From: Raillietiella orientalis
Lineage: Eukaryota
Reading direction: 5' to 3'
Assembly: GCA_036172245.1 (NCBI GenBank)
Contig: JAYWIR010000051.1
Location: 496,001 to 560,000 of the forward strand
Length of the DNA: 64,000 nucleotides
The position numbers and the translations under genes are program-made. Positions 24,288 to 59,700 of the stretch are shown in pieces. Numbering within the stretch: the first letter of the stretch is position 1; each line of letters begins with the position of its first letter. Under the pieces are notes generated by a model, which was not told where the DNA came from, made no database searches, and saw only the letters and a program-made list of their open reading frames with translations.

Positions 24288-24293
24288 TTTATT
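24288..24293 (-). promoter_or_regulatory. Putative polyadenylation signal (AATAAA) of the NR2C gene
   Basis: TTTATT on the plus strand about 105 nt downstream of the stop codon at 24398. Confidence 0.6.
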
Positions 24294-24397
24294 GGGCGGA
24301 AGACAGAAAAAAATGTTTTCGGGACTAGACGAACTCTGAAGAAAATTCATACGCTGGATGAATTCTTCTTCCCCTTCGATTCACGATCGGGAAAAAA

Positions 24398-27300
24398 TCA
24401 CTGGGATATCAGACGAGGCATGACCCCTTCCTCTTGCCCGTCGGAAGGGTGTATCATCCCCGACGTGTAGTCGCCGGTCTCCATCCGGAGGATGTACGGA
24501 ATGACCGAGTCGATCTGCACGTTGCCGATCAGGCCGGCGAAGAACACCTCTTCCATCACGGCGGGCTGCAGTCCGCGCAGGGACAGGAGGCGCAGGAAAA
24601 GCCGGCACAACCGCCTACTCTTATCGGATCCCTCGAGCTGCGCCCACATCTCTTGAGCAACCCTTTCCTGCACTTGCTCGACCTGCTTACGTATCTGCAG
24701 CTCCGGGGTATCTGCACATGTGGTGTCTTGCTTCAGCCATCTCCCCCCGGGACCAAGAGCCCGCTGCCCCCGCTCACCTGGGCTGAACAGCACCAGTAGC
24801 CGCAGGTACGCATACTCGGCGTCCGAGACGCCGAGGCGCGTCATGCAGCGAACGAACTCCTGGAGACGGCAGATGTGGTTGGTCACCTGCGTGACCTCGT
24901 GCACGGTCACCTTGTCCTGGGCGACGCTGCTCTCCAGCTGACACACCACGGCGTCGAACATGGAACGCAGCTGGATGATGTTGGCGCACTGGGTGAGTCC
25001 GAGGGCGAACAACTGCGCCCAGCACGACCGCAGGAGGACGATTTGGGAGTCCGTGCTAGAAGCAAAAAGGGAGGAGGGATGCAGTGAGGACGCTTCCCCT
25101 TGTCTTTCTTCGCCCGCGCGATGTACCTCAACGAGCGAAAGGCCGGGATGGCCCGCGCCCAGTGCACCGACAGGAAGAGAAGTCGGGACGCGGTCTCGCA
25201 GGTGTAATGAGCGCTGAAATAGGGCGTCAGTGGAGCCGGCGTGGTGATCGAGAACGGGATCTGCTGGGCGGTCAGCAGGGGTTCGTCCTTCTCCAAGAAG
25301 TCCCTCGTCAGACTGTCGTCAGCGTTGTTGCTGGAGAAGTGGCCGTTGACTTCCTCCTGGAGAACGGAAAGGAGGGGGGATTGGCGCTGTGGGTCCCGAG
25401 CTTTCATTGGGCGCGCACGGGGCGGTCCGACCTCCTCCATGATGCGACTGACGGAATCCAGGGCTCTGGTGATCTCCTGACGCTCCGCCGTCGACAAACC
25501 CATGTTTTCCCCGCTCATGGGCGAAGGGACGCGCAGGCCACTCAGGCTGTTGGCTACCGTGGCCAGCGTGTTGAGGTCGGCTCCTGCGGTGCTGCCACTG
25601 AGGCCACCAGTCTGCAGGAAGTTGGCCACTCTGTCGGGCATGTCTCCGATGTCGGCACACAAGTCGCGGCGAACAAAAATGCGCGCCGGCGAGCTCCCTT
25701 CCATAGGGGAGGTGCACTCCTGCTTCGGACTAGCACACCCATTGTCTATGGGTTCCTTTTTGAATTCGAACGAGGATGAGTTGGGCTTGCGCTCCGACTG
25801 CACGGCTGTGGGACGGTGAGCTTTGCATGACTCATGGTGGTCTGAGCCCCAAACCGAAGAAACTTACAATCACTACGCATCCCCATTTCCAGACACTTTT
25901 TGAGGCGGCAGTACTGGCAGCGGTTCCGGTGGTGCTTGGTGACCTCGCAATCTCTATTGCCGCGGCACTGGTAACCCAGCTGCTTGCGAATCGAACGCTT
26001 GAAAAAGCCTTTGCAACCTTCGCAACTGATGGCCCCATAATGACGTCCTGAAGGAACAGAAGTAGTTGGTTAATGGTGCGCAAACTTCGCAGCAAAGTTT
26101 CCGCAAATCGAGCCAACAAGCAACCACTATTCTGAAACGACGATCACTATCTTCGGGAAGGGACAGAAGGTGTTCTATTCGAAGGTTCGCGGACCCTCAT
26201 GACACGGATCGCTTGGGAGGAAAAGTCCGTATCCTTTTCTGCGCTCTGTGTGCCCATGTTGAGCATTCTTCTCATCTTCAGTGAGAAGCGACATGCTGCA
26301 TGCATGATTACTGTCATTGGTACTGACTACCGAAAGCTGATATGTGTCACCACAGGCGCGCACACGCATGTACCCGAGAAAAGTTCAACATGTCAGAGTT
26401 CACAGATGGACACACAGAACAGTGCAGAAAGCGAGCCCCGTGGACTGGTGGACGCGAAAGAAAATTGGGAATGCCGCGAGACGCTACACGAAGGCTTCAG
26501 AGAACACGAGAAGTTTCGAGGCACCACCCTGATAGCGCACGTGCACCACCACCGTGGGCGCGAAAGCGCCTTCGCAGAACACAACTGCACACCTCTCTAC
26601 ACCACTTTGCCGAGGTACTGAAAACAACCGGCGGACGGAATTCGAGGAACCACCCGAATTAGGCTGGATCCAAGAACATCCGCTTCCGAAAACCAGCGCC
26701 GGGTCCCTGGAACGCCGGCATCAAGCCCAGAGCTGCGACTCGCAGGGAAGTGCAGTAAGCTCTTCCTGCATTTCGAAACAGCACGGGAAACGAGACGCAG
26801 ACGATTCGGTGAGGCTGAGCCACAACTCCAGCGTTCTCACTGCAAGACGAGCATCCGCTTTTCATCACTTCGTTCGTGTTCCTGAACGAATAATTCACCA
26901 ATAACCGACGCTGTTGATTATCATGGGGTGACTGCTCATTCCAATGAGACTGATACAAGTTGTAAACGCTTGCACTGCAACCGTAGATGGAAATTTAAAG
27001 TGGCACTAGCATGTATAATTTAGTTAACCCAAATGAAGGGGTTCGTTGAATTCCACTTCAGATGCAAAGTGAGCCATAAGTAATTTTGAAAAGGGGATTC
27101 ACACCTGAGGATTACTCGAAATGGTAGATTCTACTTTTCTGTGCCACTGCGTGGAATGATGGCCACAGATTTTGAAATGCCTCGAACACCAAACACTTCG
27201 AACTGGCAGACGCCACCCTATCCGAAACCCTAGCAAATACCGAAAACCCACCTTGTTTCATTGGGTCCATTGGTATTTATCCGTGAGAACAGATCCAAAA

Positions 27301-31815: not shown

Positions 31816-31912
31816 CGAGCGTATTTTCCTTAATTTTTACACGCGCAGAGTCGAAAGCTAAAACGCGTCGCACCCTTTACCCTTCGCAGGTTACGTAAGT
31901 TTTGCCGCAGCT

Positions 31913-34900: not shown

Positions 34901-37900
34901 TCAGAAAACTGTCAGAACGAATGGCAAGGAAAAGAGATATTCTCCCCCACGCATCAAAGTTTCGGAGTTTGATTTGAAAAGCCTCTAGGAAGACTTGAAA
35001 CTGTCAAAATTTTTGTGCTCGATAGATGTGTAGCCTGGATAGCCTCTCTCCTCCCCCCGCCCCTCTTCCTCACTTTAGCATGGGCAAAGAGGTAGCAAGC
35101 AGATGAATTTTTTTTTCCACAGCCAGAACCGGACAAGTGTGCTTCTAAGCCAAAAGATTTAAAATAAGAATGCTTCTCATTAGTTGCTCAGTAGTAGTAA
35201 CCACGTGTGCAACTAGAAACACTGCCAGCAGCACTATCGAACCACACGACGGTAGGTTTTTCGAACCCTCAATGGCATAATGAGCAACAACTCTGCAAGT
35301 AACCTAAGAAGAATTTCGGCGGCAGTTGAAGTTCAGTTTGCCAACTTCCGCAAAGGCTCGGTTTTTCAAGGTTGGTTGAATTACCTGACTCTTAAACGGC
35401 ATCTTTCATCAAGAGTAGCATCTTTAAACATTTTGATAAGGACAAGATCTGTTTAAATTGCTGTTAGGAGGTTCTCGGTTTAAAACTGAAATTCGAATTC
35501 GCTGTCGTCGTTTAGAAAAAGAAAGACATGAACACGACTATTGAACTGCACAAGAGTATTGCAACACTATTAGGTTGGTGGCCAAAGTGCAAGATTGGAA
35601 TTCAAGATCAGAAAACAGGAGATTCAGAAAGAGGTTTCGAAGGAGTTTTCAATAGCAACTCCACAATGAAATGGGGAAGGAGAAAACAAGCTACAGGTGG
35701 CCGGAGTTTTTGATCAAAGATTGCGTTGAGCTCATTTTACGGTATTGACACCCCTTCCATAGAAAGAATGGAAGAAAAATCTATTTACAAGCAGCTTCGA
35801 AAGGCATTCACTATGCAGCAATATACAAAGTGACATGGATGGGATGTGCAATCTTACCCGTATTATTTTCCCATAACGAATTCGTCCCATTCCAAAATGA
35901 TTACAGTTATAAAGTTGATGATCCACGTTGGTGATAGGATGCTCGTCAAGAAACGGGAAGATCGTAACTGGAGTCGAAAACCGAATTGCAAGAGATGCCG
36001 GGGATCCAACTGACTGCATCCTGGACTCTCAGAGGGGCATTCTCAGTGCGAACACGAAAAAGCTGACATTCTTCTCACAAGCTGCTAAACGTTCTCGATA
36101 GAATGAGGCAATGGAATAAATTCTCGTTTATGGCACGGTGGAGAGTCTAATGCTCCTGCATCAATGCAAACGGAGTGAAACAGATCGACAGCATTCTCGA
36201 CACAGAACTATTACAAACTTGCTGGAACGCGGGGATAGGGTTAAGAGCAGAGGTGGTCTACTTTGTTCCTAACAGCAGGGTGTCCCTTGGCTTGGGACGA
36301 ATGCTCCTCTTTGCAGGAGACACTTTTGGCTTTCGAACGCTCCGAGTTATGCTGTGCCCGACATGATTTCTGATCCTCTCGTCTCCATCATCCATCGTCT
36401 TAAGCAGTTCACTCCGTTGGCAACAAATTTCGGCTTTCGCCTCCCTTTTGCATTTCGAAAGAGCTACTCGGAGGCGATTCGGACGGTAGTGCGTGTGCTC
36501 CCGGACGACTTATTAGCTCCCGGATTAAAATGTCACTTGATTACTCACCGCCATTTTCTGTCGAAGCTGATAGCTTCCAAGACCGTGCCTGTGACATCAA
36601 GGATTTCAGTCCCTTCCCTGATCTCCATCGATCGTTATTTCGAAAAATGCTCTTAAATGTACTGACGGATCTTTCAATGACGAATGTACATTTGTGCCCC
36701 GAAGGAATTTTGTCAAAAGAGCAAAACTTTCGCTGTTTATTGGTACTTTATTGGCACCAACAAAGACAGACAAACAACACTGAGACATATGTTTCTGAAG
36801 TCATGGATTCACATTTTCGGCTTTCATGGGTACTGATAATGCTGGAATATTTTTAATGAGTAACAGAAGCTCTGCCTCATTCAGAATTTTCGAGCCAGCT
36901 CCTCTGCCATTTGGAAACATGTTCAGCTCAGTTTGAAAAACAAAAATACGTCCTTCGTGACCTGCCTTCGGGGGTCGCACCAACCCACTGAGACCGCGAA
37001 CGACCCTCACTTCACTCTCTTAGTTCTCCACCCTGCGTCCAGATGCCACGCCACGCCACGAAGTGATGCGCGAAAACACACACCAAAGTGTTGGAACGAC
37101 GTGTTTCAAAGACGATGCAGAGCAGTTCTCGTTGTGGAACCGGATTTCGAAGCTTCTGGAATGCTCATGGAATGCTAATAGGCAGTGCAGAACTTCGTGG
37201 CCAACACAGAATCGGCTTCCTTCGAAAATCAAGACACGTTATCCATCCTCGAAATGCACTTGGACGAAGCAAAAGCCAGAAAAAAATTTCATGATGAGCC
37301 AAATCAGCGCTGCACTCACACGAGGCATTCTTTTTAAGATTTACTTTTCAACATTCTTGAAACACTCGACACGGAGAAGTTCAGCATTTTTTTTTTTTTT
37401 CTTCCTTTGATCGTAGCACGTTCTTCTGCATTCCCATACTCACCAATGAACCATCACCAGTTTTGCAAAGAGTGAACTGTTCGCAGTGCCTCATTTCTCG
37501 TCAAAAGACTCCACTGCACCCACTTTGATCTCCCTCTTGTGATTAGACATCCAGCAAATTCGCCCTTCCTTCTCATCCTGAAGCTCTTCCCGTTGCCTAA
37601 GGCCTTGTCAGCTCGAAAGTTTTCGGTGGTTTCTGATTCGAAAGCCTGCCGCAGTTTCTTGACGCTGCTAGAACGAAACCAAAGGTGCTTCGGGCTCGCA
37701 GTTTTCAAGAGGCAATGAAATATTTGACAGCGAAGACACTCTCGCTTTTCTCAAAACCTAATGGGGAAAAAAACAAAACAAAACAAATCCAATGAATGGT
37801 TCATCGAACCGTTTTTTTCGTATCTCCTAACAACAGCAGATAACCACATTATCGTTAACACTGCAGTTACTCACACCTTGCACGTCGGTTTCCACAAAAC

Positions 37901-39906
37901 GGGCATTGTGTTCCAGCAGACGAATATTGCATCAGACTGGAAGAATCTTCTTACCTCCAAGATGATACAAAAGCCAGCGGGACCTCATAAAGGATCGCAG
38001 GAGGGAAAATCAAAGAAATCTTCTTTGCTCCCATAAACTTTACTCCACCATCCACGAGTGCTAGTTGGGTCTCTTGTTTGCTGATGAGGGCAACACCATT
38101 CCTGGATTGGAGAAAGTTAATTTGAAAAAAGCAGATCTCTCGGAAATGTTTTCCCTTATGGAAGCAGAGAGATTCTGGGTATGCACTGTAAGAAAGTTGA
38201 TCTCCAATGAAGAATCGGTTCCAGCGGAAGCTGAGAAATGAATGCGAAGATGGGAAAATGCCTTGCAAATTTGAGTGCCACGGGTCCCCAGCTACTCCCT
38301 GTTGGAGAACTCTGACAAGAAAGAATTTTAGGCTGTTGGCGTTTTTCGCGGATGATTTCAGCCAGGATTTCGGGGGGTTGCCGGAATGTTGCGAAAAGCA
38401 TCACTGCATCGTAAGATTCGCGTCAACGCAAAAATAACAGAAATGGAAAAAAACTGGACCGACATCTTCCCGACGAAAAAAGAAAAATGAATTCGTCTCC
38501 TGGGAGCGTGCATGTACCCGAAAGTTCTGCCTCCTCGTTTCGAGCACGAGCGGTGCTTGGTTGATCTTCTGGTTTCTTTTGGGAGGTCTTGCGTTTATTT
38601 TTTTTCGCCAAAAATCTTCGACGGGAACCTCACGGAACCTCCCTGCGTCTACGGTGTCCTTGCAATTCGAAAATCGGACGCTGCACTTTTTCTCACTTCT
38701 GAGAGTCCTTCCTCCCAGGGAAGAAGTCGAATGGAAGCTCCGGTGCAGGACTGAAGCTGGAGGAAGCGCACCAAAGCGGATCGACTTGTTGATTGACTGA
38801 TTGGCTGCTTTCTCGTTCCCGAAAGCTCAGATTCTGATCAGAGCAGCGCAATTATCTCATCAAGAGAATCAGAGAACTGTTGGTTTGCTTTGCAACGCTG
38901 CAGGTAATTAAATCCTAAGTTTACCAAAGGGAAAAAGAAAAAAAAAAATGGTCGCATTCAGCCATGAATTAACGCGTTAACGGGTCCACGAAACGATTTC
39001 GAAATGCCCGGCGACACTCCTTTTCCTTGGGAAAATTCCCGAAATCGGCAAGAGACCGATGCTTGCTGAATTCGCAAATATATTCTGAGCACAGATTTGC
39101 GATTTGAAAAAGTTTCCCGAAGCTTCGCAGATGGGGTGAACGACGGAAAGGACCCTTGCGACGTTCTCTTTCAGTTCGCTTCCTCTCGGGATATTTATTT
39201 ACAACTCATGCAGTTGGCATTTTGATTTAAGATTGCATCTAGGATTCGGACTGATGCTGGAGCAGCTGACTTGCAAGACGCGGAACCACACTCGGTCGCA
39301 TGGAACGACTCGAAAAGCAGGGAGCAGGTTTTCTTCGTCGTTGCATCTTTCGAAGTTTTCTTAAGGAGAGCCGCCGTTGCTAGGATGGGGTTTTGATCCG
39401 GAAAAGCCCAGCGTCCGCGCTGGCTTGGATTTTCACTTCTTGCTTTACATCAACAGCTGCTACGCACTTTGATCCTTTCATTCGTCATTATTTTGCATGT
39501 AGACGTTTACTTATTTATTTTTTCTTTTTGAAAAAAAAGAAGAGAAAAGGAGGGAAAACACCATCAGAAACACCATCCTCCTCGTGGGTCTTCACAAATT
39601 TCTGGTCCCGTCTTCGCAGGCCTCTTCTTTCTTAACTGCGGCCAGCGTGCAAAAAGGTGAAAAAAAAAAAAAACATTTATGAAGTCAAGACAGCATTTTC
39701 TTTTGTGACCTCGTAGCGAGACCACGAGCGTCAGGAAACTTTTTTTATGGGCCCTTAGACTGGTATCGACTGTGGCAGAAGTGACCTATTAAATTAGTGA
39801 GTTATAAAATGTATTCATGTTGGGGAAAAAAAAAAAAGGACGCAGATTTCTTTCATCTGTGTGGGTGGTGTGGTGTTTGTGTGCTTTTATTTTTTTTTGA
39901 GGGAAA

Positions 39907-43791: not shown

Positions 43792-43826
<35 letters not shown>
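43785..43826. repeat. (CCG)3(CTG)11 trinucleotide repeat
   Basis: Directly visible, about 270 nt upstream of the UBE2H start codon. Confidence 0.9.
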
Positions 43827-43829
<3 letters not shown>

Positions 43830-43982
43830 GTAGTGGTGGTGAATCGCGCGTCCCCCAGTGGTCGCCCCTACTGCTCGTCGGCTGGGTCGGGATCTGCGCT
43901 GGCAGTGGCGAGGAGAAGTGCACGGGAGATTATGCGACGCTAATGCGTATCTTCGAACAAAAGTGAAGATGTTGAATGTCTT

Positions 43983-43994
43983 TATGACGTCATA
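43983..43994. promoter_or_regulatory. Extended palindromic CRE (TATGACGTCATA) upstream of UBE2H
   Basis: 12-bp palindrome about 105 nt before the ATG. A second TGACGTCA lies at 44234-44241 in intron 1. Confidence 0.45.
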
Positions 43995-44097
43995 GAAAGT
44001 GTCGCCATTGTAAGGAATCGGTAACACACACGGGAAAATTTAAATACAGAGGGGAAGGCGTTGTGGAAGCGTTTTGTCTTGCTGAGGATCGTCCACC

Positions 44098-45563
44098 ATG
44101 TCCTCACCAAGCTCCGGGAAACGTCGTATCGACACGGACATCATCAAGCTGTATCCTTTTTGTGAATGTTCTGCTGAAACTGCAATTCGTGGGAGACGCA
44201 ATAACGAGCTGATTGTTTAAAACAGTTGTTTTGTGACGTCATGTTGTCAATTTTTGGCATTGCTTCCCCCCCCCCTCCTCCCCCCTTTGAAAACTTACCA
44301 CCCTTTTATCATCCGAATGTAATTCGGATGATGATTGGCACTGTCCGTAAAAATGATTCATGCATTCAATTTTGTGTCAAGTAGGTGGTGAGCTTGGAAC
44401 GACACGAAAACTAGCGTTTCAAGCCAGTTTTAGCTGTCTCAGATATAAGAAATTCGAAAATAAGATATGTATTCCCTTTTTGGAATTTCAAGCACCCCTA
44501 TGCAAGCAGCAGCCAGTGTGATATGCTCTGCAGTGTAGCAGGAAGGCTTCCACCAAAATGCCTTTAGCTCCACTCAGATACAGAGCTTCACTTTCCCCGA
44601 ATTCGAATATCCCCTTGCATGTTCACATTAAGCAAAGGTTTTGGCATTTTTACCAAGCATGCATATCCATGGATATTTGTGCTTAGTAAATGAGACAAGG
44701 ACCGGGTTCGTTCAAATTTCAAGTAAACGATTTTTGTATTAGAGATTTTCAACAGAATGGCAAATTGTTGTGATGATAACATGTTGGTCGTGTTTAGTAG
44801 TTAAGTCATTGGGCCCGTAACTGTTATGAAATCCCTTAAATATAGCCTAGTATTGAGAGTAAACATGAAGTTACAGTCCTAAATGGGTTGAATGAATTCA
44901 GTGTTAAATTTTATGGTCCTTGTGGCAGTAAGTTTTCAACATTAATGGTAAAGCCTTTTTTACATGCAGCATTAGCTTCATATGAAGGTGGTGTATGGAA
45001 AGTAAGAGTGCATCTTCCAGAACACTATCCTTTCAAGTCTCCATCCATTGGTTTTATGAACAAGATATTTCACCCAAATATTGATGAAGTATCAGGAACT
45101 GTTTGCTTAGATGTGATCAACCAAGCATGGACAGCCATATATGGTGAGCATTTAGTTGCACTGATCTTGTAGACAAGCAAGTACCCTTTATCAAGTTTAT
45201 CAAAGCATGGCAATGTTTTATAACAAAGCGTAGTCTATGCTTTTCAGACTTATCCAACATTTTTGAATCCTTCTTGCCACAATTGCTAACTTATCCTAAT
45301 CCAATTGATCCTCTGAATGGGGATGCAGCCTCTATGTACTTACACAAACCTGAAGAATATAAAAAGAAAGTCCAAGGTAAGGTTGCCATTCTACTTGCAT
45401 TATGTGCAGATGCGTATTAATATCGTACATAGAATATGTGCAAAAATATGCTACGGAGGAAGCACTTCGTGAACAGGAACAAAATGATTCTTCCAGTAGT
45501 GAGTCTACCATGTCAGATTTCAGTGATTTTAGTGAGGACGAAGCCAGAGATATGGACATATAA
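44098..45563 (+). CDS. UBE2H: Ubiquitin-conjugating enzyme E2 H (Ubc8 ortholog), 5 exons, 185 aa
   Basis: Exons 44098-44150, 44851-44927, 44976-45143, 45248-45376 and 45433-45563 (558 nt) give [154 protein letters not shown]...[13 protein letters not shown]. The HPN motif, catalytic Cys and acidic tail are characteristic of UBE2H. The start context is CCACCATG. Confidence 0.97.
44151..44850 (+). other. U12-type (minor spliceosome) GT-AG intron, UBE2H intron 1
   Basis: The 5' splice site is GTATCCTTTT. A branch-site-like TCCCTTAAA (44832-44840) ends 10 nt before the TAG acceptor, and there is no polypyrimidine tract. Both boundaries are fixed independently by protein homology (KL|IESKH). Confidence 0.9.
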
Positions 45564-45673
45564 TATGATTTTATTTAATTTTATTTTTTTTTAGTTTAAA
45601 TTTGCAATATATAAAGACAGCTATTATAAACATCGATATACCCATAAAATCTATATATTGTACATAAGAGTAT

Positions 45674-45704
45674 AATAAAATGAGATAAATTCCTAAATAA
45701 TAAA
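45674..45704 (+). promoter_or_regulatory. Putative tandem polyadenylation signals of UBE2H
   Basis: AATAAA at 45674-45679 and 45699-45704 in an AT-rich 3' region. Confidence 0.55.
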
Positions 45705-48700
45705 AGGAAACGCAATTCTCCTTTCCCCAAGAAATGTTCCCTTTATGTAGTACCAGTGGTATCTGTTGTCGTGTTTCAGATTGAAATTACTGTTGCTTCT
45801 AAGGCACAGTTGACTGGAACTTTGTGTAGCTCTCAGGTAATTCACCAAAACCTGTTGTATTTATTGTTGATTTTACTGGATGCACTACTGTGCATTTTAC
45901 TCAACAGAAATATGTGTATATTATATGTTTATTCAGATTTTTATTTGTATATTGTGTGACCATCTTATATTTTTGATTACTATTGTTTCCCTCACATGTT
46001 TGTGTGATTGTTCCAAATAACAGCATGTGTTAAATTAGTGCGGGATTTTACATTTCCAACCTTCATTCAGATATTTTGGCCTCATAGCTGTTGTCACAAG
46101 TAATGATTCTAGTTTTGGAAAATTTCGAATGAAATTTTGATTACTAGTTCTTTGTAATTATGTTTTCACTGAACTTGCAAAAATCAGTTGAGAAGTTTCA
46201 AGACTTGGGAAACCCAGAACAAAAAGTATATTCCAAATTGAACTTTGTACGTAAATTGCAGTTAGATTGTCTGCTGAAGTGTTTTAGTAGGTGGTTGGGG
46301 CAAGCTTGCACCTTATGGTAAGCATAAGAGAGTCTAGTTGTTCAGGCTTTAGCATGAGATCTCTGTGAACTCACTGTGTTGCATTTGCTGCCATATGTTG
46401 GGAGGAAATGTTACCCTGAAAGTGCTATCTGTTACCTTATTTTAAATTGTTTGCTGTGTGGGTTGTGAATGCCTTGTCATTGGGCACAAAGCTGGCTCAT
46501 ATTTTGGTCTCTGCATTTGAACCTTCAGTTGTCAAAATTGCAAGCAGCGTTATTCAGTGTGTTCCTGTGATATCCAGCATGCACAACCATTGAATTTGCA
46601 TCATTTTTGCTCCAGATTGCTCTTTGGGTTACTATTAATTTTTTGGAGGAAAAACCAACAGACTGAAAGAGAAAGGAATATCACTGGCAAATATTTTGTT
46701 AAACTTAACAAAATAACATGCAAGTTCCATGGTAGCCTTGTTATTTGTTTATTTTTGTTTATCCGTAATGGAATCGCTTTTGTTTTATGTGTACCAAGGC
46801 CTCATTCAAATCATACCATAAGTGGAGGAGGATTAAGTGTGAAATCAGAAATGTAAAAAGGAAAAAAAAACGGAAGAAAATAGAAGCAGATGGCCCTTAA
46901 TTAATTGAGTAGATACCGTGTGTGTGTGGGGGGGGAAACAAGATTATTTAACACCCAGTGCCTTTTTTTGGGAAAATTTAATGCTCCTTTTTCCTTGTTG
47001 TTATGCTGCATGGAAGGTTAAATGTGTGAAGTCCACCGCGTTCCCCCAGGGCACCATATTTCGACTTGCTCACTGTTGCGGGTCACCACTTTCGCCATCG
47101 CTGATGGAGGTGTGCAGGTCGCGTTTTGCCATATGAAACCATCTGCACATTGGAAAGTTCCTATGCTGACCGCTCGCGAGTTCCATTTTTCCTCCCGAGT
47201 CCCAGGTAGTGACAGCGCCAGAACCGTGTGGCAGATGGGGCGAGGTTGTTTGCCCCAAAGTCCTCGAGCGCAACATGGCTTCCGTTTTTCCCTTGTCGGT
47301 CATGTTCAGTTCATGAGGGATAACCCCTGCAGACGTGTCACGGACGGAGGATATTACCACTGAGGTCATATTGTAGCGGAATGTGGAACTCCGGTCTCGG
47401 GCACGTGCAGCTTTGTTTTGAAAAGCCTTCGCTTCCGAGCAGCTCTTGCGAATTCCTTTCGGGAACGCTGACGATGAATCCGTCGTCCGTGATGGCGACG
47501 AAATGACGCCTCTTGGAAATGTAGGCGGCAGATCTATTTGCAAGAGCAGGTGGTGGTATGGATGGTGCAGAGCAGTGTGGAAAGCCGCGACATCCTTTGG
47601 TCAAGATTTCGACCGTATAGGAAATTCGAGAATGATCTGAAAAGCACCGAAAGCACATTCCATGCGAACGAAGAAGCATGAGGTGGTTCTGCACGTGGTT
47701 TGTGCTCGTCCTGATCAAAGTATTTCTTGCACCGATAGACCGTGCGCATTTCTAGTTCACTTCTGGTTGACCGGGCCGTGTTGGAACTAACGGTTTTGCT
47801 TCCAGGCAGGCACGTAGAGGGAAACTCGTGCAGAGCCCCACGAAGAACGGCGATTTCAGACCCATGGCAAGCGCAGAAAACTGCGAGACTGCTCCAGGGT
47901 GACCGAAGGGAAGTGGAAACCTCGAGAGTGTTCGCTGGGAAACAACATCCAGAAAACGATCAAAGAAGAATCGCATGGAGAAGCGAAGCTCTTACCCTTG
48001 GTAGTGGTCTTTGCGTGGTTGAGGCTTGATTTGGAAGTCGGGTGGCCATTCGATCTTCTGCTCATGCAGGGTGCCGTAGAGCTTCCTTTCCGAATTGCAG
48101 GATGGAAACAAAAGGTGCCGAGGCATCCCGATCGATTCGGGATTATGCGTAGCAGACCATTCTTCGTAGTGGACCTGTGCGTGGACTGAGAAAAACACTG
48201 CTTGTGAGAGCAGGAAATCCAAGCGAAGGACGTCAGATGACAAATGAGGGATTTCTGTCGCCAACAGCAACAACCATTGTGTTTTTCACACAGGAAATTG
48301 CTGCCGATTGGAGGCAGGCAAGCAGTGCGTCTCCCGCACCAGAGGAAGTGTGTGTACAAGTCCAGAGTCCGAGAGATGCAAGCGTGTATATCCCCGAAAT
48401 AGTGCTTCGTAGAATGCTTTGCAGAATGGATCGTCCTAGGCAGTGAAAATAGTAGAATTCAGCATTTAGAGTTCGTAATGCAAGTGAGCCTTTTCAGGAA
48501 TGGGTATGTAAATGGAAAGCATGCAAGATCAGATGAGGGGGGCGGGAATAATCGTCTCACGAGAGAGGCTTCTTCAAGTACGCTTTGCAAGAAGTTTTGA
48601 AGATTCCCAAAGAATTCTTATGAATCGGATACAACTATAAGGTTGGAATAATCCCGTGCCTATCAAAAATGTACGTTGCTTTGTTATTAAGTCCGATGGC

Positions 48701-49427: not shown

Positions 49428-52400
49428 CGTGGTCCATTGCTTTCGTGAATTCCGAAATGGGGGACATTAGGTGATTTGTCTGGTCATCAAAATTCATGAC
49501 CATGAAATTCCAATGATTATCACTGGACACAATCGCGCATCCGTAACTGAAGAGAAACAACCATTTCGCTCGGATTGCCAGCGCTCTTGTTTCGTGTTAA
49601 TCCATGTCTTCTGCAGCCACGCTTTCCGAATGGTCCAACTTTGGCAAATGCTTCTCGTCATACCGCTCGAAGATTGTAGGTGTAATGGTTTCTATCTTGG
49701 AAACCATGCCCTCGTTACCTGCGCCAAGACAAGCCTGGACGTGACAGCCGCAAGAAATGAAAGCGTGCGGTCGCAATGTATTGAAAGAAAGTGTGTAAAG
49801 ACCAACACCACTGCCTGTTGGAGACACGGAAACACGTGATCAGGCGAGTTGCATAATAGAGCTGAAGAATAATTCCGGGTGCGATGCGAAGATAGCCATT
49901 CCCCGTTGGCCGCAACATAAATACAAACTTTCTCATTGTGACCCCGTAAATGTCACAGAAGCCCACGCAGACTGGGGCATGGGGATGGAATCTGAAGGCC
50001 TCCTCGGGCAGGAGGTACTGTCATGGTTTCTTTTCATGCTTTCACAAATTTGGGCAAATGGTAGATTTCATCGCGTAATTAAACAGTGCACGGTCACACC
50101 CGTTGCTTAGGAAGCGTATTGCGTTCCAGAAGCAGTGCTTTTTTCTAATGACGACGATGAGAGCAAGGGGGGTCGGGCGTGATGATACCGGAGGAGGGAG
50201 TTGCAAGGAAATTCCAAAGGATGCACATTTGGTTTAGCAAGGTCTTTTCGTATGCCATCGTGGCCCGTGGACCCCTCGACACTGGTTGGGTTTTCAGACG
50301 TTTGCTTTTTTTGGAAATGAAGATCAAGTAATTAAAAGGAAAGTGAAAAACGAAGACAGCTACCCACTATCGAATCGGGATGAAAACTTGTATGAAACAG
50401 GAATCACGACTGTGAGCAATCAAATGTTGCTTTTTCCTTAACTGATGCTTGGAGTCATTGGGGTGAAATGCCTCTGATGATTAATCTAACCCTTTCAACC
50501 GCGTGCCTTGGTTTCTTTGCTCATTTCTTGCTGTTTGTTTCTGAAAATCTGGACTCGTGTTTTATTTCATCTTTTATTTGATGGATCAAGTTTTTTTGCT
50601 CTCCACCTCCTCAGCTTCGGCTGTTAGTGGAAGGCAGGAAAGGCGTATCGTTAACTGCAAACAACAAAATTGTTTACAAGCCAGACTGCTTGTTCCATAT
50701 GGTAAGCACCGGATCATTTTAACATGAGGGTTTCAGCCAATGGCTGACGTCGCGCCGCAAGAAAATCCGTTTTTCAATGGTTTCACTCATTCCCGAATAG
50801 CAGGGAAAGGTGACTGCCATTATGGTGGCGCACAATTTTCAATTGTGTGAAACGCCGGTGGCCCTAAAACTCAAAGCCGGAAAAAAAAAACTCCGACCGG
50901 CGCTCGTAGAAAAGTCTGCTGGGTCTGAACTCTGATCACGGGGTGCGGGATCCTCAGGAATACAGTTATTCGGAAAGTCCCCTTTTGGCCGATGTCCCCT
51001 ATTTCCGGTGCTCTTCGCTCCATCAACCAACAGCGCTCGTTTCATCATCGCGTTTTGCTACTGCTGAACACAGTCTCCGTCTCTCTGCTCGCAGTTGGTC
51101 TTCTTCCTGCGCCACTACCTTGTCACCATCACGACGGCGATTGCCTTCACAGCGCTCGTCTGACGCAACTAGCTCGTCTGTAGGAATGCGTCGTTGCGAA
51201 AAGAAAAATAGAAGATGCCACCTCACCACGCCTACTTACAGGCTGAGCCGTGGAGTTCTGATCGCTGTGATCAGAAGAGCGGACCGCACATACACCGGCC
51301 TGATTGGCACTCGGAAAATGCTGTTAGAGGATTTGTGTTTTGGGCTCTGAAGGAGAAGAACGAAAGATGTCCATGCGCGTGCATGGATGAGTTGCCCCTG
51401 GAAACTTCGAGGCCCACTCCATGGATCCGTGAAGAAGCTTACCGGAAATTCTGGTCTCCGTGCTCCCCTCCCCCTCCCCTCCCCACGGCACACGGACGCG
51501 TGCACGCAGACGTTTCCTGCTTAGAACACGCAAGATACTTTCCTTTTGTGCAAACGAAGCCGACATCGGAGACGGGAAGTATTTCGGAGTCCCCGACTTC
51601 CTCAGAGGCTTTCGATCCGGATCTGGAAATCCACCCCAACTTCCGAAGGTAAAGCTCTCGGCCACAGGAATATCAGCTACCTCTATCTTCCGCCTATTTC
51701 AGCGTGCGGCCATAAATCACGGACCCGTTAATGTGCGTGGTTTTGCATATGCAAATGGCGCGCTCTGCAAGCCAGCATCTGCCTACCCTCATTTCGCCAC
51801 TGGCGCACAAGTGATGCTTGTGTATGTAACATAACATCAGCACCAGCTCAAACAACAATCCGTTCATTAAATACATTATGCCGTGTAATATATATTCATA
51901 GTGGTCCTTGATAAGGTCAAAGTACACGATTAACAAAGCACAGAGTAAATGCTGCAAAGTAAGATTCAGGATTGGTTTCTTGTCTCACTGAATCTGTTTC
52001 ATTCACCGATGCTTTTTCCACAATCCGCTCGTTTCTAAAGGCAGCTGAAATTCGGAGCGGCTTACCGGAATTCGAGTTTCGGGTTTTACGGAAGCGCCTT
52101 TGGTTACCACCACTCCTTCGCATGACGGAATGAAGTGGCCAGTCGCGATCATTGCTTGACGACTACCAACCACTGCAGGTGGTGGTCACTTCGCTCGTCA
52201 TAGGGACCACAGGTATTCTTTTTGCCGAGCGATTCGTCGCGGAACGAAAGCGTCCCCGGGCATCTCTGTGTTTTCTTGCAGGCGGCGAAAATGGAAGCTC
52301 AAGAGTGCGAAAGGTCATCCCGTTTTCGGATTGTGGCCCAATTGTCCGCCGCGTGTTCGGAGCTTCCTCGGACTGCTCCCCTGTTGTTTCCGCCGCGGAC

Positions 52401-54064
52401 GCGCACTGCGCGCAACGGGAGCCGTCATCGGACAAATCCAAACAGCGATCCGGAGCGGGGGAGGGAAAAGGTTTTTGAACCGCACGTAGCGACCGTTGAC
52501 CACGAAGGGGGAACGCGCGAAAACTGAGCTCCCTCCTGGATAGGTTCCGCGCCTCGTTCCTTCGCCTTTGGAGCTGCACACTTCAGTAGCGGTGGTTCGT
52601 GCTGTGGCTGTTTGTCGACAACCCCAAGAGGTGGGGGTGCCGTACTTGTTGCTCTGCAGGTCCGGTTTGGTTGAGTCTTTTCCATGAAGGTGGATGGGTC
52701 GTCATTCCCGGATGCGTCTTCGCCGTTCCCAATCGTCCTGTGCACCGACGACTACCGCCTGAGAGGTGGTAGTCGTTGGAAGACTGAGTGCCGTCGTGGG
52801 GCGCTGTATCGGAGGCGTTCCAAAAAGACGGATCAGGGAGCTGGTGAAGGAAGCACTCCTGGCTCCTGGCACGGGTCATGTTGAAGAGCCCGGTGCACGT
52901 CCGGTTTCTTCTTCAAGGCGGTGGGAGGTGGTTGCTATGGACGCGGAAGATGCTGGTTCCTGAGGCGGTGGGCGGGAGGAGCCAGGTTCTCCTCCGTTTC
53001 CGCGCGTTGCTATGGTTTCTCGTTGCCCGGAGACCGCCGCGTCGGCGTTTCTTGCTGCTGCTTGCGCTGCGCCAGCGAGGAGGGGTACTGGCGGTCGAGC
53101 TGCTGCTGCTTCCCGGTTGGTCCCACGTGGGAAGGGAGACGAGGGATCCTGGAAACCAGGCGTCGGTCCCGGACGGTCGTGCAGGGAGCGCCACGGGAGC
53201 ATTCCGGGTTCTCTCTGCAAGGTGGTCCGAAGAGACGTTGGCCCGCCCCCGGGGAGGCGAGGCAGGCCGCATCCCGCGCTTGGGGTCGCCTGCGCGTGTT
53301 CGGAGAGGGCACTGTAGTGGCTTCATGCAGAGCTCGCAGCGGCCGCGGCAGCTGGCATGTGGGAAGGGCGAGATTTCGGAAAGGGTCCGGCGCCGCTCAG
53401 CCTAAGGACAGGGAAGGGTGAGGCGAGAGGGGGGTGACGCGTGCGCGTTTCGGAGTCTACCTCCGAGGTTAGGGACGACGTTGTTGTCACAGAGGGAGCG
53501 GCGAGCGAGAAGAGAGTAGTTGCGGCGACCCTTCCCTTCTTCCTTGGGGCGGTGCGCGCGCGCCCTTTAGGGCCGGGAAACCTCCGCATCACCGCGGGGT
53601 GAAGGAGGCTTCATGGTCGGGGAGGAACCGGGGAGACCCCTGTCCAGGCGGAGGCTGGGCCTCTCTCGGTTCCCACCTCAGGCGCGACGAGACGCAACCG
53701 ACGGAGCTCTCCCGCGCTCATCTCCCCCCCCCCTTCTCTCCCTCTGTTTTTTTTTTTTTTTTTTATTATTCTTTTCCCTTCCGCTTCCAGTGGCGAGGTC
53801 TGCGAGTGCCCGCGAGGCGGCGGCGCGTTGCCGTGGCGAGAGCGCGAGCCTTCTGCCGGGTGGCTTGGGGCTCTCTCCCGAAAGCCGCCGCTCCGCCTTT
53901 TCCCGCGGGCGGGAGGGGGGAAGGCGTGGGAGGGAGGGACCTCCCCAGGTCGCTCGCCGTCGCCGCAGGCGCCAAAGCACAAGAACTGCTGCTGCTGCTG
54001 CTTCTACTCGTAAAGCTCCAAGCGGGCACTGCGCACCGGCCCCGTCCACGCCGCCTCCCCCGCT

Positions 54065-54305
54065 TCACCCCCGCCTCCCCTCCTCGCCGGGCGGGGAATC
54101 CTCTTCCTTGTAGTCCCGCACCAGGAAGGGCTTGCTGCGGTCGTCCGTGCGGGCGTGCTTGAGGGAGCTCCTGCGAAACCTCCGTATGGACTCCAGCAGC
54201 TGGCTCCTGTCCGGCGCGCCCTCCTGCGCCGGAGGCGTGGGCGAGGGCCCCCTGGGGGAGCTGCTCCCTGGAAGAGAAGAGGCGGTTCGCGAGCGGGGGC
54301 TCGCC
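54065..54305 (-). CDS. Probable 3' exon of a WH2-domain (actin monomer-binding) protein
   Basis: After a pyrimidine-rich acceptor (ccctctctccag) the frame reads ...SPRGPSPTPPAQEGAPDRSQLLESIRRFRRSSLKHARTDDRSKPFL. This fits the WH2 pattern R-x-x-L-L-x-x-I-R...L-K-x-x-x-T-x-D-R-S-x-P (54211-54122). Upstream exons are unresolved. Confidence 0.72.
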
Positions 54306-54543
54306 CTGGAGAGAGGGGAATGCAAGGGGGGGAGGAGGGGAGGGAACTCTGACCTTTCCGGCTCCCTTCTCCCCGCCCACTCGGCAGCTCCCCGGAGGTC
54401 TCCCGCGGAAAGGTCGAGGGCAGCGCACACCCCCTGCAGCAGCCCGACCTCGTCCCGCGCGAGTACCCGCCCCCCTCTCCCTTACTCCTCCTCCTCCCGA
54501 GGGGCGGGACGAAGCCGGGAGCACCGGACGATTCCTCCCCGTC

Positions 54544-54584
54544 CCTCCACCCCAGCGACCTTCCTTGGGTCGCTGGGGTGGAGG
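54544..54584. repeat. Perfect 17-bp inverted repeat with a 7-nt spacer
   Basis: CCTCCACCCCAGCGACC-ttccttg-GGTCGCTGGGGTGGAGG. Confidence 0.9.
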
Positions 54585-56703
54585 CTTTCCTTGGCTCAGC
54601 GACTTCCTTGGGGCAGCGACTTTCCTTGGCTCGGCCTCCCCCAGAAGAAGGGGAGCTATTGCCGTACCCATTTGGATGCTCGCGGCGGGTCCGCACACGT
54701 CCTCTGAAAGGTCACCCTTCTCCTGGCTGCTGCTGCTGTTTCTGCCCCAGATCAAGGCGTGGGCCACCTATACTTCCTCATCTGCTCGAAGACGCCCTCT
54801 GCTTCCCTTCTCAGCAGTGGTCGGTCCCAGGAATTCCTCCTCGTTCCCCCCCCCCTTCTCATAGTCCGAGTCAGGGGGCGCTCAGTCTCCTCCGGGAACG
54901 CGCGCGACCCGCCGCACTGCACCCCTGGCGGCGCCCATCGGAGGAGCGCCTTCTTTTCCCCCTCCCACTTTCTTGGCTCGCGACGTGGCTCTCCGGACCC
55001 GTGCCCGCCCCCGGAGTCCTGTGGGTCGCTCACGCGTGTCGTCACATCCTCCTTCACCCTTCCTCCCTCCGCGGAGGGAGTCCCCCACTTCCCATCACCC
55101 CTGCATCTTGCCCATGTCGCGCTCGCTGGCGAAGAGGGCTCGTCCGTGTGTAGGAGTTTTCTACTCCCATTTTTCTCTCCTCCGGGGGCGGGGGCTCCCC
55201 TGAGGATGACTCGGCAGGTCGGCCGTGGCTTCGCGGGCGCGTCGAAATCGGTCACGTGTCCCTCCGGCAAGGGGGTTCCAGCAGCGGTCAACTGGGGCGG
55301 GACGACAACCTCAGCAGCAGGAAGGATGGTCGGGGGGTTCTCCGTGCCCTCGGCGGGAGGGTCATCGCGGATCCGTCCGCTGCGGGACGGCCGTCGTTCT
55401 CCAATGAGACTCTGCGGCTGCGATCCGCGAGAGGTGGTGATTGGGGAGGGCAGCGGTCGAAAGGCGACCGGACTTTGGGGTTTGGCGGAGCGTCCACGGC
55501 CTCGCGGGCGGCTGGGGAGGTGCGTGTGGGACGCGTGGATTCCATTGGTGGGGCCGCGGGAAGAAGGTCAGCGACTCCGGAAGAGGGGAGGAGGGAGGAG
55601 AGTCGGCAGCTGCCACGCGGGTCCGCGTCGCGTCGGTCCGGCGGACGAATTCCCGGACCTCTGAGGCAGGCACGACGCCCCTTCCTCCACGGGTCTGGGG
55701 CCTCGGCAGTGCTGCTCCACTGTGGAGCTGCCCCGCTTCACGCACAGCAGAGGAACATCGCCGGGAGGCGGACGATCTCGTGTCGGAAGGGTGGTGGGTG
55801 GTCTACGATGGTATTACGGAACACCAACAAGATGGCCTACTCGGCACGACCGGAAGCGTTTCCGAGAGAACACTGCTGCTGCTGCCGTCGTTGTTTCCAC
55901 CGCCGTGGCGACCGGTGCTCGCCGTGACCTTCGTTTGCCCCGCGGGCACGGGAAGGAGGAGCTGTCTCCGAGGGGGAAGTGTAAGAGACCTCCGCTCTTC
56001 CTGGAGCAGAGGAATCAGCCGCGTGCCCTCGACGAGATTCCCTGCGGCGCCACTGGCGGCCCTGCATCAAGGTGCCGGGTGCCCCCGGAGGGACCTCCGT
56101 CCGCCCGACGGGCGCGGGAGAGCAGTGCGCGCCGGCTGGAGTCGCGCGAGCTGGCTCGGCCAAAGTGGTCCGGAAAGGGCAGTAGCGGCGCCGCAGGCGG
56201 TGATCCTCGACCTGGGTCGCGTGCGCCTAGACCTGCCCCCGGGGAGATGCGCGCGCGGTCGAGGAGAGGGCGGCGACAAGCGGTGGGGCTGGCGGCTGCC
56301 TCCCGGGGTGGACTATGAGCCATTGTTCCCGCCGCGGGAGAGGGAATTCTCAGCGGCTTCCCGAAGCCGTCGGCTTGGAAACGGAATCTCGGCGGGTCCA
56401 TGCCGGAAAGGCACTCACGGCTGCCAGGATCCTGTGCTGCGGATGTCGGCACGCGGTATCTTCGACTGCGACCTGTCCCCGCCCCGAGGTTGAATTCCCG
56501 TTGCCCTGAGGAGGTTTCCACCTCTGCTTGGGGTGATCACTGCGGAATGGATGACGACGCGGCCGGGGCCGGTAGGGAGTTTGGGGGCGAAGGAAGGGGT
56601 GGAAGGGCTGCCCCCTCCCCCGCGAGAGACAGTGTTCATGTGGGTTGTTCGGATGGTCCATCAGTGGCGGCCCCATCCGCTTTGAGGGGAAGCGCACGGG
56701 CCA

Positions 56704-56750
56704 GCGACCACCGGAAATCTCGGCCGCTGACCGAGATTTCCGGCGGTCGC
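56704..56750. repeat. Near-perfect 20-bp inverted repeat with a 7-nt spacer
   Basis: GCGACCaCCGGAAATCTCGG-ccgctga-CCGAGATTTCCGGcGGTCGC (19 of 20 positions paired). Confidence 0.9.
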
Positions 56751-59700
56751 GGAGCACAGAGCTTGGATGTTGCCCCATGAGGATGGTCACAAGAGGATGC
56801 CTAGAAGGAAGACAACCTGAGGAGAATAAGCAGGGTCACCACGGTGCCCTTGAAGCCGGGGATCATGGGAAGTGACCGGACGACGGGAACTGTCCCGGAA
56901 GGAATGGGAATGCAGCACAGGGACGCGGTTCCCCACGAGGGACGAGGGAGACGCCCATGGTGCTTTGGTCGGGAAGCCCTGCTGTCCGAGCGACCCAGGT
57001 AGGGTCGTTCGGGTCCAGAGGAGTCGCTGGCGTGAACTCGCGAAATGCCGGCACATGCACCTCAGCGCTTTTAGGAAGCGCCAGAGGGTTTTGGGTGGCA
57101 CCGGTCAGACTGATTGCCGCACTCCCGAGGGCACTGGCGGAGAGGGCAGAGGAGCGGTAGTTGGTGGTGGTGGAGGTCGACCAGCTAGCAGATGCGGGGA
57201 AGGAGAAGGGGGGGGGGGCGAGTGGAATCAAACCGAGATGGCTGTGCGCTAACCCAGTGGGGTCACACGAGGAGGAGCTTCCGGCCATATCTTCCGCCTC
57301 GCGACCCGCTACTTCAATCCCGAGCGCCTTCCTGCCGACACGGTCCTCGCGCGCAACCAGGACGAGCGACTAGTGGGCAAAGGAGGGCGGGAGTCCCTCC
57401 GGGAAGGGGGAAGAAGGGATCTCGGGGGACGGCGGTGTGGTGGAGGAGGTCTCCACCTCGTCCTTCCGCGACCAGGCGGGGGGGAGTGACTCCCGCAGGC
57501 AGCGGCGCTTCTCGCGACCCTGGCCGCTCTGGACTCAGTCGGAAGTTCCCGGTTTCGATTTGCATCCCGGAGGTGGGAGACAGGTGCGCGAGGGAGGCGG
57601 AGCACGAAGGCAGGAGCAGCGGAAGCGACGAGAAGTTGCGATGTCGCTTTCCTGCCATTCCGCGCGCAACGATGGGGGTCGTCTTTCGCCGGAGGCAAGT
57701 CGTGCCAAGGAAGCTAGGTGGCAGGTGGGGGGTTGACCTCTGGCCTTCCGGAGGCTCAGCGATCTCTGTGAAGGGGGGTCCGACCGACCAACCCCTCGAG
57801 CTTTTTCGCAGCCCTCGAAGGGCCGAACCCCTCGGAAGAGCTTCAGGAGCCGGGAGGGAGCGGCGCCGAGGGATTCTTTCCGCGCTCTCCGAGCAAACTC
57901 CTCCTTCGTCCCCCACTCGTCTGGCGGTGCGTAGGAGGGAGAGCGGGTTGGCAGGAGTGAAAGGGGGAGGGGGGATGATTTGGACCCCACCAGAAGCCGC
58001 CACGACTTCCACCCTGGAGGGGATGCCACGGAAAGGATGGAGGGCCCTCGCCTCTCATCCCTCGCCAGCGGGAAGTCGTCGTCATCTTTCGCAGCGCGTG
58101 CCGGAGGAGCCCGCGGCCAGGAGGCGCCACGGACAAGGGAGGGGCGTGGCAGCTGCCGTGCGGGATTCACGAAAGGGGACGGCGGGAATCCGGAAAAAGG
58201 CCAAGGGTCCGGTAGAAATGAGGAACGAGGGCCGAACTCCTGTCCGCCACGGAGGGCAACCCTCAGCGCGGGATGCAGCGGGATGAGGCGGCAGAGGCCG
58301 AGGGCGGATCTGACAAACGGCGAAAGGGGAGGAGGGAGCAGCGAGGGGGGTGCCTCTCGCGTCATTGTCTCATGGCGGACTCTGGTGAGGATCTTCAGGG
58401 CCGAATTCGGAACCGCCGCAACCGGGGGAATCGAAGGGGGGCCGCACGGAGTTCCCAGATGCGCCTCCCCATCCGGTGCGGATGTCTGGCCAGCACGAAT
58501 CAAAACAAACCGGAATGCGAGCGAATCAACGGAGTGCTCGTTGTGATCGTAGGTCCGTCTCCTAGGAACGAGGACCCTCTCCCCGATCGCGGTTACCTAT
58601 CTTCATCGTCGCGGCTTTTCAATGCAGTGCGGGCAGTCGCTGCGTCGTCGTCTCGATCCTGCTTCGTGGTAGTCACTGCCGCTGGGATTGGTGGCAGCAG
58701 CTTCACCGCTCTTCTTCCCCCCACTGCACAAGAGAGCGCGGATGCAGTCCGACCGGCACGTTCATGCTTTCCACTTTGATCTTCCCTTTCGGTCTTGCTG
58801 CTGCAGTCCGGTCGCTTTCGTTTGCGGCTCTCCCTTCTGACGATGGTGCCTCCAGCTGCTGGCAGCGCGGGGGAAGATGGGCTCGCGAAGTTGGCGTTCC
58901 AGGGAACGCGCCTTGGCAGCCCCTCTCCAGCGAACTGGGTTGTGAGAGGAGGTTTGCAAGGCGGTTCGCGCGCGAGGAGGTTCCTTTCCCGAAAACGCAG
59001 AATCTACTCTTTTGAGCGCCTCGGGAACACTTGCGACAGGAGCGCGGCTATCGTAACGATGGAAACCGCTGCCGTGCGAGCGGAGACTCCTCCTTGCGCC
59101 AATGCTTCTTCCCCCGCTTTGTTTCACCAGTTTCCCCTACAGCACTTCCCGTGTATTTTCGGAACCTCCACTATTTAGCTGTGCTGACCTTGGTCAATTA
59201 TAGCATCACAAGAAACGCTACAAGCAAAATGGCCAATGCTCGCTATGAGGACAAGAGGACATGACAAGAGTCAACCAGAGTTCCTACTGTAATGGATGCC
59301 TGAGTGGCAAGCAAAGAACAACCACAACAAAACAGAACGGAAAACAAGTGAACTCGTTGTCTTGGGGACGTATTGATTCGTGCTCCCTGGTGTGTTTCTT
59401 GTTCCTGTTTGCTGTCCATAAATGATGAGGAAACGCAAACACCTTAAGTGCAATGCACTGCTTGCGTCATAAAGCACTCAAGAACTGGTGTCTCGGGAAG
59501 CACACAGGCTTCATGTGCCCCCAGGGTCCGTTTGTTGATGCTTGAGTGGTACTGCACTAGGGTCAACTTGTGACAGCAGCGCAGCAGCGGGATCGACAAG
59601 ACCCGTAGGCACTGCACCTACGATGCTTCAGATGGTGATAGCATTTGCGCGTGGATAAAAGTACACGTACGCTACCGTAGTCGCAAGAGCTCTTGGCAAA

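Follow-up and report, generated by a model that had tools for sequence, protein, structure and literature searches.

A probable U12-type first intron in a compact, arthropod-like UBE2H gene

The stretch of DNA analysed here, 64,000 nucleotides in full and called the window below, contains a compact gene of five exons on the forward strand at positions 44098-45563, modelled by direct reading of 43800-46200. Exon 1 (44098-44150, 53 nt) runs from the ATG at 44098 to c.53 and ends with two nucleotides of the Leu18 codon; the spliced translation of the gene aligns with cDNA-like loci over residues 1-185. It is followed by intron 1 (44151-44850, 700 nt), a GT-AG intron that its motifs, their spacing and comparison with other loci mark as probably U12-type. 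Exon 2 (44851-44927) was placed from the sequence and the spliced translation, exon 3 (44976-45143), which holds the UQ_con core, from Pfam and homology, exon 4 (45248-45376) from its Pfam UQ_con match and the spliced translation, and exon 5 (45433-45563), with the acidic tail and the TAA stop codon, from sequence and translation. The three other introns are U2-type: intron 2 (44928-44975, 48 nt) has a GTAAGT donor, intron 3 (45144-45247, 104 nt) runs from GTGAGC to CTTTTCAG, and intron 4 (45377-45432, 56 nt) has a GTAAGG donor and a weak pyrimidine tract. When the exons are joined and translated by script, they give a reading frame of 558 nt that codes for 185 residues without interruption. 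The original prediction, which placed intron 1 at 44151-44850 and contrasted its 700 nt with the 48-104 nt of the other introns, is correct in all its coordinates by direct reading.

The Pfam domain UQ_con matches exon 3 with an E-value of 4.9e-21 and exon 4 with 9.6e-07. Further, exon 3 shares 91-96% identity with proteins named ubiquitin-conjugating enzyme E2 H in their sources, the full-length protein is about 80-83% identical to arthropod UBE2H, and the acidic C-terminal tail is present in the translation. Because of the domain matches and the identities over exon 3 and the full length, the gene at 44098-45563 is, by sequence homology, an orthologue of UBE2H (the UBE2H / Ubc8-type ubiquitin-conjugating enzyme). 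It had first been set against a nematode background, but its best matches are arthropods: this holds for 39/39 of the rows that name an organism within the 120 best matches of exon 3. The genera in these rows are, as we take them, insects, two springtails and four crustaceans.

A few smaller features of the gene can be listed here. Intron 2 has two in-frame acceptors 6 nt apart, CAG at 44967-44969 and TAG at 44973-44975. The distal AG gives the length seen in the orthologues, while the proximal one (44968-44969) would give an intron of 42 nt and two extra residues. Just 5' of the gene there is a (GCT)11 repeat at 43793-43826, and two TGACGTCA palindromes, presumably CRE-like, lie at 43985-43992 (about 105 nt before the ATG) and at 44234-44241, inside intron 1. 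Intron 1 also contains, at 44309-44331, an inverted repeat with perfect arms of 10 bp around a loop of 3 nt, TCATCCGAAT gta ATTCGGATGA, adjoined by a C-rich tract at about 44267-44286.

In the rest of the window few protein domains are recognised, and scans for tRNAs and tandem repeats gave nothing informative. A Pfam search of 348 stop-to-stop open reading frames (50 + 148 + 150) returned only UQ_con, Hormone_recep, a threshold-level PBD, WH2 and one sub-threshold match. The Hormone_recep match (E 5.3e-17) belongs to a GC-rich nuclear receptor of the NR2C/HR78 type on the reverse strand (24401-25863), whose ligand-binding domain occupies 24401-25318. Its identity is 42-48% whether it is compared with insects, Limulus, Priapulus, molluscs, echinoderms or vertebrates. 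A quick tree of 44 rows places it beside insects, without support, on a branch of length 3.17, and so long a branch suggests a fast-evolving genome. Taken with the arthropod matches of UBE2H, the genome can tentatively be seen as fast-evolving, probably that of an arthropod, and distant from annotated genomes. The receptor frame was also considered as a chordate NR0B-like protein, following protein atlas clusters, and this assignment was dropped as homology searches gave it no backing.

The splice signals of intron 1 set it apart from its neighbours in the gene. The U12-type 5' splice site has the consensus RTATCCTTT, while the donor consensus of the major, U1-type class is CAG/GTAAGT, where the slash marks the splice site. 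Intron 1 interrupts the Leu18 codon after c.53, in phase 2, and its first bases (44151-44160) are GTATCCTTTT. The donor GTATCCTTT at 44151-44159 agrees with the U12 consensus at 9/9 positions and stands directly at the end of exon 1 as defined by homology. Against the U1-type consensus it fits at only 3/9 positions, and it lacks the G at +5 that the other three donors of the gene have; these fit at 6/9, 5/9 and 7/9 positions (introns 2, 3 and 4).

At the 3' end a similar agreement is found. U12-type introns have a branch box TCCTTRAY, whose branch A precedes the 3' splice site by about 10-15 nt. Here the box TCCCTTAAA is found at 44832-44840, within which CCCTTAAA covers 44833-44840 and the CCTTAA core 44834-44839. 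Counted from the last base of the intron, the presumed branch A is 11 nt away if it is the A at 44839, or 12 nt if it is the one at 44838. Compared with the consensus TCCTTAAC the box differs at both edges, with C for T and A for C.

The predicted acceptor AG is at 44849-44850, and a nearer AG at 44844-44845, only 5-6 nt past the branch A, appears to be passed over. If the nearer AG were used, the frame would shift and meet a stop after 12 codons, while the AG at 44849-44850 restores the Leu18 codon and gives the junction DTDIIKL/IESK within a conserved peptide; the earlier claim that the nearer AG is skipped thus agrees with the reading frame. The corresponding pattern D[TS]DV.KLIES[KN] is uninterrupted and in a single frame in 49/80 related loci, the remaining 31 being intron-bearing genomic loci, loci without that part, or more divergent sequences. 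It was because of this protein homology across the junction that the acceptor was assigned to 44849-44850, and the predicted 44150/44851 junction rests on protein colinearity.

Absence of a pyrimidine tract had also been put forward as a mark of the U12 class. The description is true, with a pyrimidine fraction of 0.50 at positions -25 to -4 of intron 1, but the feature discriminates weakly within UBE2H, as the corresponding fractions in introns 2, 3 and 4 are 0.59, 0.55 and 0.45.

How often such signals would occur by chance depends on what is counted. The motif RTATCCTT occurs 4 times in the window on both strands, against 1.51 expected, and 9/100 shuffles reach 4, so by itself it is not rare here. 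What is improbable is the combination of the motif at the exact end of the exon with a properly spaced box: the joint expectation of such a donor and a CCTTRA box is about 1.1e-6 per GT-AG intron, as calculated from the local base composition with the box allowed in six permissive positions before the acceptor. The intron contains no sequence repeated within the window except one inverted self-match of 42 nt (44649-44690), and it shows no sequence similarity to the 80 UBE2H loci used for comparison.

These 80 loci come from metagenome contigs scanned with exon 3 and were selected from 407 confirmed relatives. Most of them are uninterrupted coding sequence, that is, cDNA-like or intronless. The informative ones are the ten genomic loci that contain exon 2; each of them has an intron at the identical phase-2 position in the Leu18 codon. 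Four contigs start at exon 3 (L016, L024, L026, L029), and these carry no information on the c.53 position. A more distant locus (L049, 54% identity here) reads through residues 1-33 and has no intron there. Identities summed over tblastn matches of the metagenome loci to 12 named arthropod proteins carry too much noise to be of use.

The ten introns fall into two classes. In four contigs (L011, L017, L027, L030) the intron has the donor CT/GTATCCTTTG and the branch site TTCCTTAAC, followed by 11 nt including the AG, and by these signals it is U12-type. These introns agree with intron 1 of the window in position and phase, in the donor CT/GTATCCTTT, and in the CCTTAA core followed by exactly 11 nt, but differ from it in having the full-consensus TTCCTTAAC and a length of 1187-1240 nt instead of 700 nt. 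In two more contigs (L020, L022) exon 1 lies outside the locus, and the 3' end is as in the previous four, so they can be called U12-type by the 3' end only; the 11-nt spacing between core and acceptor is common to all six and to the window. As the six contigs resemble one another closely, they probably count as one lineage.

In the last four contigs (L010, L012, L019, L063) the position and phase are the same as in the window. However, the donor is GTAAGT or GTAATT, there is a clear pyrimidine tract and no U12 box, and the introns, of 136-1158 nt, are U2-type. Judged by their sequences, these are most simply explained as minor-to-major conversions, a process discussed by Larue and Roy (2023, PMC10639083). 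The comparison at c.53 proposed in the original prediction has thus separated the orthologues into two intron classes, and with four contigs of the U12-type and four of the U2-type the position is in itself a compact natural example of conversion.

The UBE2H minor intron is also known outside these contigs. In the supplementary files of the Minor Intron Database (MIDB; Olthof et al. 2019, PMC6717393) mouse Ube2h and human UBE2H are both listed as minor-intron genes. Their donor reads GCT/GTATCCTTC, with the 5' splice site entry GCTGTATCCTTC scored at 96.9 and 98.7, the branch site is given as ATTTCCTTTACC, and the lengths are 41,828 nt (mouse) and 71,531 nt (human). As in the window, the mammalian introns are of the GT-AG type and have the exonic context GCT/GTATCCTT, where the window reads AAGCT/. 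They differ from the window in length, which is 700 nt here, and in the branch site, ATTTCCTTTACC instead of TCCCTTAAA.

The mammalian intron also seems to have the same place in the gene. We assume that the human minor intron, which is on the minus strand, has its high-coordinate end no more than a few hundred bases from the 5' end of UBE2H. As the database gives coordinates and no exon number, it is from this gene extent and from the exonic GCT that we take the human intron to be the same intron 1; the human and mouse introns would then fit the position of the Leu18 codon, close to the start of the gene.

The catalogue also puts the branch site into context. The original prediction had pointed out that the branch site ends in TTAAA and had read this as a deviation belonging to the organism. 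The edge of the box does deviate from consensus, but the deviation is not peculiar to this organism. Among the mouse and human branch sites of MIDB file 1 (PMC6717393), CCTTAAC occurs 377 times, CCTTGAC 244, CCTTAAT 137, CCCTTAA 65 and CCTTAAA 18 times. The putative branch site CCCTTAAA is therefore a minority form within the catalogued range, and no special inference on the U12 snRNA of the organism follows from it. In the 5' splice site column of the same catalogue the donor GTATCCTTT occurs 455 times, in agreement with the U12 consensus.

We conclude that intron 1 of UBE2H is very probably a genuine U12-type GT-AG intron and the orthologue of the catalogued minor intron of human and mouse. 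The class had been proposed from the motifs, and it is borne out by the donor matching at 9/9 positions, the spaced branch box, the poor fit of 3/9 to the U1 consensus, and positional orthology with introns that are catalogued as minor or are U12-type by sequence. The novelty that was implied for the intron does not survive, as MIDB and Table 1 of PMC3564746 already include UBE2H among the genes with a minor intron. The UBE2H minor intron is ancient and catalogued, and the one in the window is a correct but ordinary instance of it. Our search found no published work that deals with the class of this intron in arthropod UBE2H, and UBE2H is absent from those supplements of PMC10639083 and PMC11347168 that were searched.

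Splicing of a U12-type intron with these signals would proceed as follows. U11 would pair with GTATCCTTT at 44151-44159, and U12 with the CCCTTAAA box, leaving the branch A bulged at about 44839. The acceptor would be the AG at 44849-44850, the first one far enough from the branch (11 nt), as the AG 5-6 nt from it would be too close for use. Splicing would then join c.53 to 44851 and restore the Leu18 codon.

The signals could nevertheless be present without being used in this way. The minor spliceosome may have been lost in the lineage, with the major spliceosome removing intron 1 despite its U12-like signals. Complete or nearly complete loss of minor splicing has been described for several animal lineages that evolve fast and have compact genomes, some arthropods among them (PMC10639083), and the very long branch of the NR2C gene suggests that the genome of the window is fast-evolving as well. 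Further, weak pyrimidine tracts are tolerated by the U2-type introns of this UBE2H gene, as in intron 4, and the same intron is already U2-type in four related contigs. However, a donor with a fit of 3/9 to the U1 consensus and no G at +5 looks ill suited to the major machinery when compared with the other three donors, and without selection by U11 and U12 one would expect both the 9/9 donor and the spaced box to decay or to convert, as in the four U2-type contigs. We therefore regard removal by the major spliceosome as distinctly unlikely.

Two further possibilities concern the gene itself. The intron might be a twintron as in vertebrate UBE2H, where U12-type and alternative U2-type sites compete and give rise to isoforms. 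Table 1 of PMC3564746 includes UBE2H among 18 human twintron genes, with an ancestral intron of the U12-type, and gives for human UBE2H a U12 variant of 183 residues and a U2 variant of 149 residues; for the window we consider such an arrangement very improbable. The gene model could also be wrong or the gene inactive, with exon 1 belonging to another transcript form, or the whole being a pseudogene, so that the pair of motifs has no function. Exon 1 is indeed a mere 53 nt long, but the five exons join into 185 uninterrupted residues with about 80-83% full-length identity to arthropod UBE2H, the exon 1 peptide MSSPS.GKRR.DTD..KL agrees with the related loci, and introns 2, 3 and 4 begin and end in the standard way. 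A wrong model or an inactive gene is thus hardly credible.

If intron 1 is a functional U12-type intron, as we prefer, it has consequences for the splicing machinery of the organism. From the good preservation of its signals we infer that a working minor spliceosome is present, and the organism likely retains U11, U12, U4atac and U6atac together with the associated proteins and uses them on intron 1. In the 64-kb window an Rfam scan gave 0 matches at gathering score, including for U11, U12, U4atac and U6atac, a result that applies to the window and has no bearing on the genome as a whole.

The length of the intron recalls a pattern known from insects. In species poor in minor introns, among them many insects, Larue and Roy (2023, PMC10639083) report a length of about 100 bp for major introns and of about 200-1000 bp for minor ones. 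The window resembles the minor-intron-poor insects of that study in its long minor intron of 700 nt next to major introns of 48-104 nt, although the published contrast is a genome-wide statistic and the window provides a single gene (PMC10639083).

At the least, intron 1 of UBE2H extends the known range of an ancient and catalogued minor intron by one species. As the c.53 intron is U12-type in mammals, in arthropod-like contigs and in the organism of the window, but U2-type in four contigs, it can serve as a convenient single-locus marker of minor-to-major conversion.

A more far-reaching reading starts from the distribution of minor introns in animals. Extreme reduction is reported for Diptera, springtails, mites and bdelloid rotifers, and apparently complete loss for some mites, chironomids, two copepods, tardigrades and nematodes (Larue and Roy, PMC10639083). 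The lineage of the window could be a fast-evolving, arthropod-like one with a compact genome, from which minor introns are believed to have vanished entirely or almost so; the one in UBE2H would in that case be among the few that survive. We hold this to be rather unlikely. If it were true, minor splicing would persist in the lineage and UBE2H would be a 'last-retained' minor-intron gene. Were the source lineage one that is believed to be without minor splicing, intron 1 of UBE2H would be a concrete counter-example.

Elsewhere in the 64-kb window the search for U12-type introns gave no convincing second case. The three other occurrences of RTATCCTT, at 14441, 26229 and 41678, were considered as U12 donors and set aside, having no gene context. 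The branch-like boxes at 31826-31834 and 50431-50442, considered as U12 3' ends, and a weak donor-like site at 48388 were likewise rejected, as they are not tied to any gene. In the window as a whole TCCTTRAY has 6 matches against 7.6 expected, and RTATCCTTT with one mismatch has 28 against 19.2 expected; the counts of RTATCCTT and TCCTTRAY are within chance.

A few isolated sites are still worth recording. A second perfect GTATCCTTTTC is found on the forward strand at 26229-26239, outside any recognised gene. At 31826-31848 there is a box TTCCTTAAT with an AG 16 nt on, and at 50431-50454 a box TTTTTCCTTAAC with an AG 14 nt on.

The GC content of the window forms a mosaic on a scale of about 10 kb. 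The UBE2H region (44001-46000) has 37% GC, while the blocks at 1-2000, 16001-26000 and 52001-58000 have 60-67% and contain many long stop-free frames in which Pfam recognises nothing. A WH2 actin-binding motif (E 9.6e-06) lies in a GC-rich open reading frame on the reverse strand at 54068-54481, and the threshold-level P21-Rho-binding domain (PBD, E 3.4e-04) is found on the forward strand at 37728-38033, 16 kb from the WH2 frame.
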